This document shows positions 24,323-29,048 of a stretch of DNA of 38,389 bases, one piece after another. Source of the DNA: a virus; IMG/VR virus record IMGVR_UViG_3300028114_000002; one strand, written 5' to 3'. The notes beneath the pieces were generated by a model. It saw nothing but the letters and a program-made list of their open reading frames with translations. It ran no database searches and had not been told where the DNA came from. The first letter of the stretch is position 1, and every line of letters begins with the position of its first letter. The position numbers and the translations under genes are program-made.

Positions 24323-24621
24323 GAATCATCAAATTCGTCTCACGCGAAATTAGCGGTGGGCAGATTGCGCTCTATCCTATCTATGAGAATGGCAGGGAGG
24401 GTGCGCTTGCGTGTAAGTGTACGCCTGAAGTTGCGCACATGTTCATGAGCGCGCCAAGCCTTATGCGTATGGCAGAGCAAGCAACTGGCTCCCCGGACCC
24501 CATCATGCGCAGTCTCGCGCGTACCTCGCTCGCACTCGCGAAGCGTGCGCCAGACGTTCTCCCTGCAAATAGCCGCTCTGATGCGTTCATGAGCATCATT
24601 AGGGGGCTTCGGGATGGCTAA
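24319..24621 (+). CDS. Hypothetical early protein (100 aa)
   Basis: GTG start forming a GTGA overlap with the upstream stop. No motif recognised. Confidence 0.45.
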   Translation: MRIIKFVSREISGGQIALYPIYENGREGALACKCTPEVAHMFMSAPSLMRMAEQATGSPDPIMRSLARTSLALAKRAPDVLPANSRSDAFMSIIRGLRDG

Positions 24622-25015
24622 GCGCATTGGACTCACCAAGGGTTTTCACTGCATTGTGAGTGATGAGGACTTTGAATGGATCGGATCATTCAAATGGCAC
24701 GCATCTATTGCAACGACAGATGAGCGCAGTATCCAAAAAGTATACGCGAAGCGCCGTAGGCGAGTCTCCGAGCCTGGCGAGACAGCCATGGTGTACATGC
24801 ACCATGAGGTCATGAAGCGGCACTTGCGCGAGCAAGGCCTTGACGTTGACTTGGAGCTTGCAGGCAAGTACATCGATCACGGGGATGGGGACTCTTTGAA
24901 TAACACGCGCGAGAATCTTTGGCCTGTTTTGCCGAAAGAGAACATCCCACGCTACACGCTGATCCATAATCAGCCACGCGTGAAGCGTGCGCTTAAGAAA
25001 GCGAGAAGGAAATGA
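24614..25015 (+). CDS. HNH endonuclease (133 aa)
   Basis: ...FKWHA...YAKRRR...MHHEVM...YIDHGDGDSLNNTRENLWPV matches the HNH_3-type signature (DH-x-[DN]-x-x-x-x-N-N-x-x-x-N-L). Confidence 0.8.
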   Translation: MAKRIGLTKGFHCIVSDEDFEWIGSFKWHASIATTDERSIQKVYAKRRRRVSEPGETAMVYMHHEVMKRHLREQGLDVDLELAGKYIDHGDGDSLNNTRENLWPVLPKENIPRYTLIHNQPRVKRALKKARRK

Positions 25016-25284: not shown

Positions 25285-25653
25285 ATGGAAATCAGTGCAA
25301 ATGAAATTGAAATCAACGGCCAAAAGTACGTGAAGAAAGGCACACAGTCGCAGGCAACATCGCCTGAAGGACTTCCCTACGTCATCATCCGCAGCGAGGG
25401 GGCTGGCGTCTTTGCCGGTTACTTGAAAGAGCAGAATGGTCAGGAAGTCGTGATCCTTGAGTCTCGTCGTCTTTGGTATTGGTCTGGTGCCGCATCGCTC
25501 AGTCAGCTTGCCATTGACGGTACATCGAAGCCCAAAGACTGCAAGTTCCCCGAGGCTGTGTCGTCACAGAAGATTTTCAAGGTGCTTGAGATCATCAATG
25601 TGACCCAGAAAGCAAAAGACTCGATTGCGAGCGTGAAGCCGTGGCAACTGTAG
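25285..25653 (+). CDS. Conserved-looking hypothetical protein (122 aa) preceding the Gly-X repeat
   Basis: AAAGGAG lies upstream of the ATG. ...VIIRSEGAGVFAGYLKEQNGQEVVILESRRLWYWSGAASLSQLAIDG... resembles a widespread small phage protein family that I cannot name with certainty. Confidence 0.6.
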   Translation: MEISANEIEINGQKYVKKGTQSQATSPEGLPYVIIRSEGAGVFAGYLKEQNGQEVVILESRRLWYWSGAASLSQLAIDGTSKPKDCKFPEAVSSQKIFKVLEIINVTQKAKDSIASVKPWQL

Positions 25654-25862
25654 AGGTTGATTCCGGCTCCGGCGACGGCTCCGGCGACGGCTACGGCTAC
25701 GGCTCCGGCGACGGCGACGGCTCCGGCTACGGCTCCGGCGACGGCGACGGCTCCGGCTACGGCGACGGCTACGGCTCCGGCTACGGCGACGGCTCCGGCG
25801 ACGGCGACGGCTCCGGCGACGGCGACGGCTACGGCTCCGGCTACGGCGACGGCTACGGTTGA
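25641..25862 (+). CDS. (S/D/Y-G)33 low-complexity protein. Mode of expression uncertain.
   Basis: The frame giving GGC-NNC has 100% G/C at third positions in the array and stops right at the array end (GGT TGA). Its only start candidate is GTG 25641, which has no good SD and lies 10 nt before the upstream stop. That points to reinitiation or a -1 frameshift rather than independent initiation. Confidence 0.4.
   Translation: MATVEVDSGSGDGSGDGYGYGSGDGDGSGYGSGDGDGSGYGDGYGSGYGDGSGDGDGSGDGDGYGSGYGDGYG
25662..25859 (+). repeat. 33 tandem hexanucleotide units GGC-NNC (NNC = TCC, GAC or TAC)
   Basis: Read directly. Every Gly codon is GGC except the last (GGT). Every Ser is TCC, every Asp GAC and every Tyr TAC, with no synonymous variation. 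There are higher-order repeats, e.g. GSGDGDGSGY twice. The region is open in two plus frames and one minus frame. Confidence 0.95.
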
Positions 25863-25896
25863 TCTATGAAAACTTTTCGCAAAGCCTCCAGCAACC

Positions 25897-26241
25897 GTGC
25901 CGCAAAGACGCCGGGGGTGGCGAGTGATTAGCGACTGGCACATGCAGGATGACCGCAAGTCAGGGAAAGTGATCAAAGTCCGCAAGACTTTACGCCCCAT
26001 GGACGAGGCAGCCTCGGATGCGTGGCTAAAGAAGCTCGGCGAATGGATCGAGGCCAATCCTCCCCCTGCCAGTGGCGTGGCCCTAAAAATGGCAGAAGAG
26101 CGCACGACAAACAAGATCGTGTGGTGGGCTCTCAATACCTACGGTAATGTCCAACTCGCTGCCGACAAATTGGGTATGCTGAGATCAACTCTCTTTGAGC
26201 GTATGCGGGCTCAGGGAATTAAATGGGAGCGGAAGAGATGA
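25897..26241 (+). CDS. Fis/NtrC-type HTH (HTH_8-like) DNA-binding protein (up to 114 aa)
   Basis: The C-terminus ALNTYGNVQLAADKLGMLRSTLFERMRAQGI matches the Fis-family HTH pattern (GN...AA..LG..R.TL..K). The start is uncertain (GTG 25897 or ATG 25942), and neither has a clear SD. Confidence 0.6.
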   Translation: MPQRRRGWRVISDWHMQDDRKSGKVIKVRKTLRPMDEAASDAWLKKLGEWIEANPPPASGVALKMAEERTTNKIVWWALNTYGNVQLAADKLGMLRSTLFERMRAQGIKWERKR

Positions 26242-26528
26242 TTATTGAAGTATCGACCTACACCGACGAAGACGAATTGGTTGAATGCAAGTTCGATGTT
26301 TGGCTCCCCGGAGGCGACGACACTCCGCAAGCGACATTCGTCGAGGGTTGGAAAGACGGGCCCGCATTGAGAGAGGATCTGTACGATACGGCGTGGCTCA
26401 GACGTGCTGGCATCTACGATGAATTAGTCGAGGCAGCCTGCGCGAAGTATGATCCGGTGCTTGACTCAGAGCTTGCGGATATTGAGAAGGGTGACAACGC
26501 CTTGGATCTCGCGAGGGAGCTAGATTAA
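26238..26528 (+). CDS. Highly acidic small protein (96 aa)
   Basis: ATG at 26238 makes an ATGA overlap with the upstream stop. By hand count there are 26 D/E against 8 K/R in 96 aa. Last gene before the hairpin at 26532. Confidence 0.6.
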   Translation: MIIEVSTYTDEDELVECKFDVWLPGGDDTPQATFVEGWKDGPALREDLYDTAWLRRAGIYDELVEAACAKYDPVLDSELADIEKGDNALDLARELD

Positions 26529-26607
26529 AAAAAGGGCTCCTGGTTTTTAGCCAGGAGCCCTTAACGGCGTTAACAGATACCATTGGAGCGGACTGAGAGA
26601 CGCCTGA
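26527..26607 (-). ncRNA. Candidate ~80-nt leftward small RNA (predicted from promoter and terminator only)
   Basis: On the minus strand: TTGACG (26642..26637), 17-nt spacer, TACCTT (26619..26614). About 80 nt downstream is the hairpin with its U7 tract. The element sits in the 150-bp gap between the early operon and the primase gene. Confidence 0.3.
26532..26562. terminator. Strong GC hairpin that ends the early operon. Its best T-tract is on the minus strand.
   Basis: AAGGGCTCCTGG (26532..26543) pairs with CCAGGAGCCCTT (26551..26562) around a 7-nt loop. The plus strand is followed only by TT. The minus strand is followed by TTTTTTT (the A-run at 26527..26533). Confidence 0.75.
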
Positions 26608-26678: not shown

Positions 26679-29048
26679 TTGTTACAGATTTTGGGGCTGA
26701 GGGAAAAGTTCAATTCAAAGCTCGGCATACGTAGACCTAGCGAGGATTTCTTCGCGAAGGGCTGGCGCGCAATGGACTTGCGCACGATGTTTGCCTCCCT
26801 GCCAGATGTGCTGGCGCAGATCCCGGAAGATCAGCGTTGGAACCTGTTCTACACGATGCACCATGTGTTTGAAGAGCCAGGCCGGCGCATGGAGCGCATG
26901 GAGGCCTACGCCTTTGACATCGATCAGATCCCCGGCTTCTCGGGTACGCGCGATCAGGTACGCGAGATTGCGGGTGTGGTTGCGCGCACGCTAGGCCTCC
27001 CCCTGGAAGAACTTGGCGTTGTCTGCAGCGGGAACGGCGTGCACGTTCTCGTATATTTGGACCCGAGTTGTTGGCAGACATCGCCGGAATATTTTGAAAA
27101 GAACCGGGGGCATTACCGGGCAGTCTGCGACAACATCAATCGAGCCCTGGATGTGGCGGGCTACGGGGGCGCAAAAGCTGACCCCGCAATCTTTGATCAG
27201 GCGCGAATTCTCAGGCTCCCCGGAACCCTCAATCGCAAGACGAAAGAGGGGCAGTTACGTGAGCGTAACTGTTACCTCTTGCAGGGGGATTTAAAGCCCC
27301 AGAAAATCGATATCTCCGAGCTCTCGGGGATCCCGGAAGTCAGTCCCGAGGACGCAATCCCCGAGGCGCAGATGGCTAGGTTCCCGGAGCCAGACCCGGA
27401 AGGGGTGCTGGGCGGCTGCAGTTTCCTGAAAGAGTGCAAGGCGCTGCCTAAGACGGTGACGGAGCCCAACTGGTACGCCATGCTCTCGATCATTGGTCGC
27501 TTGCCTAATGGCCGCGAGCTTGCGCATGAATATTCAAAAGGCCATCCAAACTACACCCCTCAGGAGACTGAGGCGAAGCTTGATCAGGCGATGGCCCAAG
27601 CGGGCCCCCGCACCTGCCAGAACGTGCAGGATCTTTGGGGCAAATGTAAGCAGTGCCCCTATTACGGAAAGATTCCGAGTCCGATCGTTATCAAGGGCGA
27701 GAACTATATCGCAACCGAGAAGACGGGCTTTCACCACATGACGACGGGCCAGGACGGGAGACCGAAGCCTGGCAAAGCCGACTGGGATGGGCTGAGAAAG
27801 TTCTTTCAGCGCAAACACCCCTACGCAACGCTTGCCGATGGCGAGTATCTAGTGACCTGGACCGGCACCCACTGGCAGGAGTATTCAAAGGTTGAGGCAA
27901 AGGCATTTGCGCAGAAGCACTTCAGGCCGGTAGCGGATACGAATAAAGCGAATGAGTTCCTGGGAATTTTGCTACGCAATGAGGTGCGCCCCCGGGGTTG
28001 GACGCAACATGGGACGAAGGGGAAATTGAACTTTCTTAATGGAACCCTGGAGCCCCGTACGATGTCGTTTGGTCCGCACAACCGAGACGACGGATTCATG
28101 AACGTGATTCCCTACGCGTATGATCCGAAGGCTGCGGCTCCTCGGTTTGAAAAGTTCCTTGATGATGTGACATGCGGGCACCGGGAGCTTCGCGAAATCC
28201 TCCTGCAATATATCGGATACTCGCTCTCAAACGATGCGATATGGGAACAGAAATGCCTCATCCTGCAGGGGGAGGGACGCAACGGAAAATCCACTCTAAT
28301 GCAGGTAGTGCGCGAGCTTGCAGGTGAGGGTAACTCTGCGTCGCTGACTCTCACTGAGCTTGAAAAAGACACGAACCGTTTCTCGCTTGACGGTGCGTTC
28401 TTTAATATGGCCGAAGAAGCTCCCACGCGTGGGATGCTCGAGAGCGGAATCTTCAAGACGCTCATTGGCGGCGGGAGCTTCCAGGTAAAGAAGCTTTACT
28501 CGCAGCCGTACTCAATTCAAAATCGTGCGAAGCTCTGGCTTGCGTGTAACGACATGCCTCGCTTCAACGACTTCACGGTGGGGATGTTCCGCCGGCTTGT
28601 GATCGTGCCTTTCCAGGCGAAGTTTGAGGGAGCAAACGTCGATAAGAACATCGGAGCAAAGCTCAGCGAAGAGCTCCCCGGAATCTTCAATCTTGCGATG
28701 GCAGCCTACGGGCGGATGCGCGCAAACGGAGGACTCCTGGATTCGCAATTGGTGCAGGAGCAGGCCGACATGTACCGGCTTGAACAGGACTCGGTGTACA
28801 ACTGGTGGCAGGATAATGTCGAAGTTGTACCCATGTCGGAGACGGCCCCCCGGGTTGACTCAAGTAAGTTATTCCAGGAGTACGCAATGCACATGCGCCA
28901 GTCGGAGGAGAAGCCTTTGTCTGCTCAGCAATTCCAAAAGCGTGTGCGCACATTTGTGAAAGATATTGAAGCTAGGCGCGTGCGATCAAATGGCGTGCGT
29001 TGGCTCATAGGCATTTCGTTATTGACAAGGCGTATGGAAAACTTCTAG
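26679..29048 (+). CDS. Bifunctional AEP primase-polymerase / SF3 (D5- or P4-type) helicase (789 aa)
   Basis: AEP motifs AFDID, SGNGVHV and ILRLPGTLNRK. A Cys cluster CQNVQDLWGKCKQCPYYG. Walker A ILQGEGRNGKST and Walker B-like region. TTG start at 26679 preceded by GGAGGGG. Confidence 0.85.
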   Translation: MLQILGLREKFNSKLGIRRPSEDFFAKGWRAMDLRTMFASLPDVLAQIPEDQRWNLFYTMHHVFEEPGRRMERMEAYAFDIDQIPGFSGTRDQVREIAGVVARTLGLPLEELGVVCSGNGVHVLVYLDPSCWQTSPEYFEKNRGHYRAVCDNINRALDVAGYGGAKADPAIFDQARILRLPGTLNRKTKEGQLRERNCYLLQGDLKPQKIDISELSGIPEVSPEDAIPEAQMARFPEPDPEGVLGGCSFLKECKALPKTVTEPNWYAMLSIIGRLPNGRELAHEYSKGHPNYTPQETEAKLDQAMAQAGPRTCQNVQDLWGKCKQCPYYGKIPSPIVIKGENYIATEKTGFHHMTTGQDGRPKPGKADWDGLRKFFQRKHPYATLADGEYLVTWTGTHWQEYSKVEAKAFAQKHFRPVADTNKANEFLGILLRNEVRPRGWTQHGTKGKLNFLNGTLEPRTMSFGPHNRDDGFMNVIPYAYDPKAAAPRFEKFLDDVTCGHRELREILLQYIGYSLSNDAIWEQKCLILQGEGRNGKSTLMQVVRELAGEGNSASLTLTELEKDTNRFSLDGAFFNMAEEAPTRGMLESGIFKTLIGGGSFQVKKLYSQPYSIQNRAKLWLACNDMPRFNDFTVGMFRRLVIVPFQAKFEGANVDKNIGAKLSEELPGIFNLAMAAYGRMRANGGLLDSQLVQEQADMYRLEQDSVYNWWQDNVEVVPMSETAPRVDSSKLFQEYAMHMRQSEEKPLSAQQFQKRVRTFVKDIEARRVRSNGVRWLIGISLLTRRMENF

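Follow-up and report, generated by a model that had tools for sequence, protein, structure and literature searches.

A putative Gly-X repeat gene overlaps a DUF6948 gene in a conserved and widespread phage gene pair

The window analysed here is the whole 38,389-nucleotide stretch of the IMG/VR virus record IMGVR_UViG_3300028114_000002. Its plus strand carries at 25285..25653 a gene for a protein of 122 amino acids (13.4 kDa, isoelectric point 8.7), which ends in V-K-P-W-Q-L-TAG and matches DUF6948 over almost the whole profile (PF22253, E 1.5e-24; score 86.4 bits, cut-off 27; positions 3-85 of the 85 in the profile). The end of this gene overlaps a second open reading frame (ORF) on the same strand, 25641..25862, which starts with GTG, stops at TGA 25860-25862 and encodes 73 amino acids (6.6 kDa), MATVEVD(S/D/Y-G)33. 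We call this repeat, in which Gly alternates with a residue X, the Gly-X (G-X) repeat. The first-pass annotation, made from the letters of the sequence, had regarded it as an array open in three frames and lacking a proper start, which might be expressed as an optional tail of the upstream protein. Comparison with related loci instead identifies 25641..25862 as an ordinary, independently initiated protein-coding gene, the expression of which would need no frameshifting.

The array itself (25662..25859, plus strand), read directly from the sequence, consists of 33 NNC-GGC hexamers placed head to tail over 198 bp, in the order SSDSDYYSDDSYSDDSYDYSYDSDDSDDYSYDY; shorter alleles, of 23 and 15 units, are found on contigs with identical flanks. 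TCCGGC is found 11 times, GACGGC 13 times and TACGGC 8 times, and the final unit is TACGGT, so that the earlier count of 11 SG, 13 DG and 9 YG dipeptides was correct. The accompanying statement that each residue has a single codon holds for TCC, GAC and TAC and fails for Gly, which is encoded 32 times by GGC and once, at its last occurrence (25857-25859), by GGT; the codon for Asp immediately before the array is GAT (25659-25661). Compared with the codon usage of 16 window ORFs, the array is far more homogeneous than chance would produce: GGC makes up 32 of 33 Gly codons against a share of 37% in these ORFs (P 4e-13), TCC 11 of 11 against 15% (P 1e-9), GAC 13 of 13 against 52% (P 2e-4) and TAC 9 of 9 against 72% (P 0.05). 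Five of the six frames are free of stops across the array. The frame of the upstream gene continues past its TAG (25651-25653) as (P/T-A)n, the reading also found in the ORF 25657..25869, and the minus-strand ORF 25503..26135 gives (A-V/G)n, both as first described. The RNA of this region (25600-25880) is less folded than shuffled sequences (minimum free energy -104.5 vs -123.5 +/- 4.9, z = +3.86). One K-M-C codon is missing from the array, namely GCC, for Ala, a residue found at only 19 of 2128 X positions in the family described below. Since GCC is the reverse complement of GGC and the array RNA is under-folded, avoidance of hairpins may shape the set of residues.

The start of the G-X ORF lies within the upstream gene. 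GTG 25641 is embedded in CCG-TGG, which includes the codon for the conserved C-terminal Trp of DUF6948. It precedes the first base of that gene's stop codon by 10 nucleotides, that is it lies at position -12 from the end of this stop, in the -1 frame relative to the DUF6948 gene, a frame that is indeed open from 25590. The 13 nucleotides shared by the two genes on the plus strand, from the GTG through the TAG (25641..25653), are the presumed site of translational coupling. Within the DUF6948 coding sequence, 4-14 nucleotides 5' of the GTG, the plus strand carries a weak-to-moderate Shine-Dalgarno-like (SD) stretch, GCGAGCGTGAA (25627..25637). Its predicted duplex with the anti-SD sequence has an energy of -6.4 kcal/mol (RNAduplex), which is also the median value for 59 relatives of the same geometry, many of which have GAAGGAG or GAGGAGG at the corresponding place. 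The early description of this start as having no SD was thus overstated, even if the SD is weak, and coupling or re-initiation at the overlap is the simplest account of expression because a weak SD of this strength is typical of the family. We found no promoter or terminator between the DUF6948 gene and the array ORF, and the two genes are for this reason very probably co-transcribed. The same 73-residue product was called on identical contigs by independent gene callers. With a net charge of about -15.5 and nine Tyr, the product agrees with its early portrayal as acidic and disordered, inasmuch as AlphaFold2 (AF2) predicts it without secondary structure (predicted local distance difference test, pLDDT, 43.6 in a single-sequence run). 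Searches of the repeat protein against Pfam, PHROGs, NCBIfam and PADLOC returned compositional noise only (TrAA12, keratin head, phrog_10432), and a homology search with it gave only 14 matches, owing to composition filtering.

Relatives were reached through the upstream gene, that is, as 80 IMG/VR loci found via DUF6948 homologs of 47-62% identity and, independently, as 80 loci from GTDB genomes, 67 of which have enough downstream DNA. A (Gly-X)n ORF lies directly downstream of DUF6948 in practically all of the viral loci and in 65 of the 67 genome loci (~97%). Its start has exactly the -12 position of GTG 25641 in about 60 of the 80 viral loci and in 41 of the 65 genome loci. The start codon is mostly ATG in the former (GTG is found in four relatives and in the window) and is ATG in 62 of the 65 genome loci: where the window has CCG-TGG and thus GTG, relatives have NNA-TGG and thus ATG, around the same conserved Trp codon. 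Because the start overlaps the Trp and stop codons of DUF6948, the family shares the N-terminus M-[AEGVD]-x-[ILV]. Two G-X proteins for which DUF6948 was not used in the search (P0121 and P0126) are likewise encoded directly behind a DUF6948 gene. The geometry of start and overlap is retained in hundreds of highly diverged phages. We refer to the products as DUF6948-associated Gly-X repeat proteins, an uncurated family defined in this analysis. The window ORF has the position, the -12 start, the acidity and the near mono-codon composition of the family, and all of its 33 X residues are Ser, Asp or Tyr. The start that had been judged improper therefore occupies the conserved start position of a family in which most members use ATG. 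A conserved canonical start among relatives, which the first-pass annotation had itself named as a finding that would remove the need for recoding, was looked for and found.

Some members depart from this simple arrangement. In-frame fusions of DUF6948 with (G-S/D/Y)n are found in P0157 (L175:1501-2085, of which the DNA was examined) and in P0232, whereas in P0137 the DUF6948 stop is lost and the array is read in an alternative (G-M/L)n frame. These cases were seen among the top 150 of 2,475 cluster representatives and each comes from a single contig, in which indel errors are possible; such rare fusions suggest that the two proteins are functionally linked. Other loci encode long forms of 200-260 amino acids, in which a short N-terminal helix and the G-X repeat are followed at the C-terminus by a conserved domain of some 150 residues with the invariant motifs FAHG.T and WH..LTGSC..GR. 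This domain, absent from the window, has no match in Pfam, PHROG, NCBIfam or PDB sequences. Loci binned with Bacteroidales and Clostridia of the gut often encode such long forms (in our alignment A2, loci L072-L077, L109, L121, L134, L141, L143, L149, L152, L155-L165 and L168-L170, together with P0129 and P0130). Two loci (L066 and L078) apparently have two tandem G-X arrays 3' of DUF6948, the second with its own ATG and SD.

Several cultured phages carry the pair, namely Iodobacter phage phiPLPE, Ralstonia phage NK-7 and the Pectobacterium phage Ymer group. In phiPLPE, a 210-bp GC-rich repeat, (KMGCCG)35, was speculated to be a novel attachment site (Comeau et al. 2012, PMC3391216, Table 3), and this is the only trace of the repeat that we found in the literature. 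The reverse complement of this repeat (NC_011142 46,046-46,255) is GGC-[G/T][A/C]C, the hexamer of the window, with the same GGC/GAC/TCC/TAC codon set and 35 units instead of 33. As in the window, it directly follows a DUF6948 gene (gp84), and it contains an unannotated ORF of 78 codons, MSRLVNNKN(G-D/S/Y)n, which overlaps the end of gp84 (L172:1173-1409). The two loci differ in the length of the overlap, 17 nucleotides in phiPLPE and 13 in the window, and the phiPLPE repeat was published as non-coding. The family also includes proteins of NK-7 (XCO36015, annotated as fibroin heavy chain-like) and of Ymer and its relatives (WCD42787, hypothetical), which are (G-S/D/Y)n proteins of short or medium length whose genes immediately follow one for DUF6948. 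NK-7 differs from the window in that the ORF starts 5 nucleotides past the upstream stop, with no overlap, and the fibroin-like label of its product reflects composition only. Gene25 of Chlorobiaceae phage CV-1-33 (QOE32032; L089:2846-3091), called as a (M/L-A)n protein, appears from its codon pattern to be a G-X array read off-frame.

The arrays of different lineages also allow selection on the peptide to be told from selection on the DNA. We compared 72 non-redundant arrays with 2128 pooled X positions. Each array is near mono-codon, and five or more codon sets are used across lineages: GGC with TCC/GAC/TAC, GGC with TCT/GAT/TAT, GGT with TCC/GAC/TAC, GGG with TCC/GAC/TAC, and GGA with AGC/GAC/TAC. 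The codon for Ser in particular can be TCC, TCT, TCA or AGC. Yet these different codon sets encode the same residues, for X is Ser at 737, Tyr at 654 and Asp at 547 of the 2128 positions (91%), and minor contributions come from Asn, Phe, Thr, His and Ala. What the other frames encode depends on the codon set, and only the G-X frame is thus conserved: the DUF6948 frame across the array reads (P/T-A)n in the window and (P/T-G)n in GGG-type arrays, and the +2 frame has stops in 12 of the 72 arrays, gained in GGT-type arrays. These comparisons argue that selection acts on the peptide, i.e. on G-X periodicity with X being Ser, Tyr or Asp at about 91% of positions. The suggestion that selection might act on the DNA itself is at odds with the diversity of codon sets used for the same residues. 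We also considered G-quadruplexes as a general explanation and rejected it, since G3 tracts occur only in GGG-type lineages.

The number of units in the array appears to vary among near-identical genomes. Contigs with a DUF6948 protein 100% identical to that of the window, and with no mismatch in 776 nucleotides upstream and 211 nucleotides downstream, have arrays of three lengths: 33 units (73 amino acids) in six contigs, one of which is identical to the window, 23 units (53 amino acids) in L086 and 15 units (37 amino acids) in L085. The two shorter alleles correspond to exact deletions between direct sub-repeats, YSYD...YSYD and SDD...SDD. Three other lineages differ in their arrays at identical flanks (L039/L041, L075/L076 and L032/L038), and in eight further pairs with identical flanks the arrays are identical. 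All changes in length are in frame and keep the stop, as for the 33, 23 and 15 units here or in proteins of 232 vs 230 amino acids elsewhere. The variation is thus one of length and not of phase. The proposal of a recent or ongoing expansion and contraction by slippage or conversion is supported by the mono-codon arrays and by the three lengths at identical flanks. Its companion, that of a hypervariable, contingency-type locus, survives in part: repeat number appears to be polymorphic in the short-read assemblies, and on/off switching is not expected of a 6-nucleotide unit with all variants in frame. These near-identical genomes were reached only via exact-protein look-ups; exact-flank DNA searches of viral and metagenome contigs gave no match, nor did blastn of 5.5 kb around the locus against INPHARED phages. 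The longest exact repeat inside the array is 40 nucleotides, and three further contigs end inside it. Assemblies are broken or masked inside arrays in L082 and L087 (contig end in SRR8441478) and in L150 (a run of N). Because this happens often, short-read metagenomes tend to under-report or distort array length. Since the variation is confined to two hexamer positions, we considered targeted mutagenesis by a diversity-generating retroelement and rejected it: none of the ORFs examined was seen to encode a reverse transcriptase, and the variable bases show no specificity for adenine.

Three of the ways in which the array might matter without being a gene of its own, or might act as a switch, concern its expression. 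One is that tRNA-Lys slips by -1 at A_AAA_G, so that the repeat becomes a tail of DUF6948 in a product of about 20 kDa. This site is present where the first-pass annotation had placed it (25614..25618, plus strand), in a -1 frame open from 25590, and the fusions in P0157 and P0232 indicate that a fused product is tolerated and possibly functional. Yet it is the only candidate single-tRNA slip site, and we judge it not functional. No X_XXY_YYZ heptamer exists anywhere in 25285..25653, no Rfam frameshift element is matched, and the RNA downstream of the site is, as noted above, less structured than shuffles (z +3.86). Among relatives, the start at -12 is conserved in most, the length of DUF6948 is uniform, and the -1 frame is closed at most 4 codons 5' of the start in 26 of 59, which leaves no conserved window for frameshift entry. 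Phage frameshift pairs such as the tail chaperones G/GT, or dnaX, likewise have a downstream ORF in the -1 frame overlapping the upstream end; they differ from the window, which lacks a slippery heptamer or a stimulatory structure and has a downstream ORF with its own conserved start. A frameshifted tail is thus most unlikely. Readthrough of TAG 25651-25653, which would extend DUF6948 by 72 residues of (Pro/Thr-Ala)n, is harder still to believe. The zero frame does run across the array without a stop until TGA 25867-25869, and 64 of 72 arrays have no stop in the +1 frame, but such openness is automatic for a repeated hexamer without stops, and no readthrough context or element was found (Rfam). 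The peptide in this frame is moreover not conserved, since it shifts with the codon set from (P/T-A)n in the window to (P/T-G)n in GGG-type arrays and (G-M/L)n in P0137; the (P/T-G)n that follows the stop in some relatives, which we had at first taken for a signal of readthrough, is simply the +1 frame of GGG-type arrays. Of the three routes of expression proposed early on, only reinitiation or coupling from GTG 25641 is therefore favoured, by the conserved 13-nucleotide overlap. A phase-variable contingency locus, in which expression of this gene or a neighbour would be switched on and off, might be suspected from the polymorphism of repeat number in near-identical genomes (four lineages, in short-read assemblies). 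It is hardly conceivable with a 6-nucleotide unit of which every observed variant keeps frame and stop, in an array that lies inside an ORF and not in a promoter or 5' region.

The array might also be a non-coding DNA element, such as an attachment site, an origin, a recombination hotspot or a regulatory repeat, in which the ORF is incidental. The proposal made for phiPLPE (PMC3391216), where the repeat is not annotated as a coding sequence in NC_011142, goes in this direction, and so do the much higher GC content of the arrays relative to their genomes and the openness of five of six frames in the window. However, the DNA of the arrays differs between lineages (GGC, GGT, GGG or GGA for Gly, C or T at the third position of X, TCN or AGC for Ser) whereas the peptide is kept; the start of the ORF is conserved in position and its stop lies just past the array; long forms carry a conserved globular domain that is read in the same frame as the repeat; and the podovirus-like window has its own polymerase, primase and helicase, with no integrase among the ORFs examined. 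We regard a non-coding role as very unlikely.

DUF6948 itself is a large family, with 2,475 clusters at 50% identity, and its carriers are binned with bacteria of the candidate phyla radiation, Bacteroidota, Firmicutes, Proteobacteria, Planctomycetota, Cyanobacteria and others. Its members are uniformly about 120-125 residues long and share a W-x-x-stop end; the longer ones are extended N-terminally only. A literature search on DUF6948 returned no papers, and searches with motif strings and with Sm-like or glycine-rich phage terms returned nothing relevant. The AF2 model of the window protein, built on an alignment of 52 sequences, has a pLDDT of 89.4 and a predicted template modelling score (pTM) of 0.77. 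Its strands (31-37, 41-51, 54-62, 92-97 and 100-105) fit the strongly bent, five-stranded small beta-barrel of Sm proteins, in which strands 1-3 (Sm1) and strands 4-5 (Sm2) are joined by a linker. The top 50 Foldseek matches of the model in the PDB are all Sm/LSm, with template modelling (TM) scores of 0.6-0.68, E values of only 1.5e-2 to 7e-2 and identities of 9-18%; archaeal SmAP1 aligns with a TM score of 0.62-0.68 and a root-mean-square deviation of about 2.7 A over about 78 residues. By sequence, the protein has no match in the PDB, and no LSM or Hfq Pfam signal appears at E up to 10 in 52 DUF6948 members. DUF6948 is thus predicted to have an Sm/LSm-like fold, which does not make it a demonstrated member of the Sm family.

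Taken together, we find it likely that the array belongs to a separate G-X gene, which forms a conserved module with DUF6948, is translationally coupled to it and evolves by slippage. The two genes would be transcribed together, and ribosomes ending DUF6948 would very probably re-start at, or be coupled to, GTG 25641 with the help of the weak internal SD. Frequent in-frame slippage during replication, or unequal recombination between sub-repeats, would in all probability homogenise codons within the array, a form of concerted evolution. The same process would make the number and order of units vary among near-identical genomes; since they vary, function should depend on composition and periodicity and not on the exact sequence or length. 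What the G-X protein does is a matter for more tentative suggestions. It might work with the putative Sm-like barrel of DUF6948, probably as a partner that is flexible, polyanionic and aromatic, or as a tail supplied in trans. Candidate roles would then be those of a regulator or nucleic-acid-like competitor for the surface of the barrel, or of a multivalent scaffold or linker of low complexity. A role as linker or spacer fits the long forms, where the repeat joins a domain of about 150 residues to an N-terminal helix. We hold any such biochemical role to be rather doubtful at this stage. Several points speak against the account given in this paragraph. The G-X start of the window is a GTG with a weak SD, and the coding status of this ORF, as of all members of the family, is deduced from sequence. 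The length variants come from short-read assemblies (megahit/Logan), in which assembler shortcuts could mimic deletions. The low pLDDT of a single-sequence AF2 run is weak evidence of disorder. The likeness to Sm proteins is that of a predicted model with marginal Foldseek E values, 9-18% identity and no LSM/Hfq Pfam signal. Finally, the interaction between DUF6948 and the G-X protein, together with its biochemical role, is conjecture.

Low-complexity extensions with Gly dipeptides occur in eukaryotic Sm proteins. SmD1 has a (GR)n tail, SmD3 and SmB have RG and LSm4 RGG tails, and bacterial Hfq has an acidic disordered C-terminal tip. By analogy, the phage pair would combine an Sm-fold barrel with an extension of low complexity, disordered and either rich in Gly or acidic, that modulates the binding of nucleic acids or partners, and the dipeptide periodicity of the G-X protein resembles that of SmD1. 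The low-complexity part is here, unlike in Sm proteins and Hfq, usually a separate and presumably translationally coupled protein, and its character is acidic and aromatic, not basic. The likeness of DUF6948 to Sm/LSm proteins also stops at the level of predicted fold (Foldseek E about 1e-2, no LSM Pfam match). Silk fibroins and FUS-type proteins have low-complexity [G/S]Y[G/S] sequences, and genes made of tandem repeats evolve by slippage. The G-X genes share with these the Ser- and Tyr-rich alternation of Gly and X, the codon-homogeneous DNA and the polymorphism of length. They differ in having no homology to fibroin or FUS, and in encoding a product that in the window has 73 residues with about 20% Asp and that is specified by phages in a fixed module of two genes. 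One might speculate that DUF6948 and the G-X protein form a widespread and undescribed phage "split Sm" module, in which a ring binding RNA or single-stranded DNA is served in trans by a translationally coupled, hypervariable, polyanionic and aromatic partner with a length tuned by continual slippage. This partner could be a tail mimicking nucleic acids, an auto-inhibitor, a competitor for host proteins involved in nucleic-acid binding or defence, or a scaffold forming condensates. We consider this module an improbable extension of our results.

An apparent oddity of recoding or contingency thus turns out to be an instance of a clearly defined and very widespread phage gene pair. The window holds an ordinary member, and the interest lies in the large and essentially undescribed family rather than in this locus. 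Current annotation mishandles G-X arrays, which are unannotated in phiPLPE, apparently called in the wrong frame in CV-1-33 and named fibroin-like in NK-7, and assemblers break or collapse at them. The pair seems to provide a clean natural case of concerted evolution in a phage gene, where codons would be homogenised while selection keeps the mixture of residues. It may also be the analogue, in viruses of prokaryotes, of Sm proteins with low-complexity tails. The cultured carriers, i.e. phages of the Pectobacterium Ymer group, Ralstonia phage NK-7 and phiPLPE, make its function directly testable.

The window as a whole, about 38 kb of podovirus-like phage genome, has its structural genes on the minus strand, and the pair lies among genes of a plus-strand early or replication block encoding an HNH endonuclease, a D5-type primase, an SNF2 helicase and a DNA polymerase. 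The neighbours of the array are the HNH endonuclease, DUF6948, a helix-turn-helix (HTH) protein, the primase and the helicase; again, none of the ORFs examined encodes an integrase. The small HNH-endonuclease-like ORF (24614-25015; phrog_4578 E 7e-6, Pfam HNH_3 below cut-off) is located two genes upstream of DUF6948. The array of phiPLPE likewise adjoins an HNH endonuclease gene (gp83). The gene 3' of the array (25867-26241) has an ambiguous start, which could be ATG 25867 (a 21-residue ORF), GTG 25897 (114 residues) or about 25924 (105 residues, according to gene callers), and its product has a weak match to the Fis-type HTH_8 (E 2.6e-4, below the Pfam cut-off). Further downstream, a strong terminator-like hairpin oriented for the minus strand (26532-26562), with a stem of 12 bp including 8 GC pairs and followed by a T-run, sits between the plus-strand genes 26223-26528 and 26679-29048.

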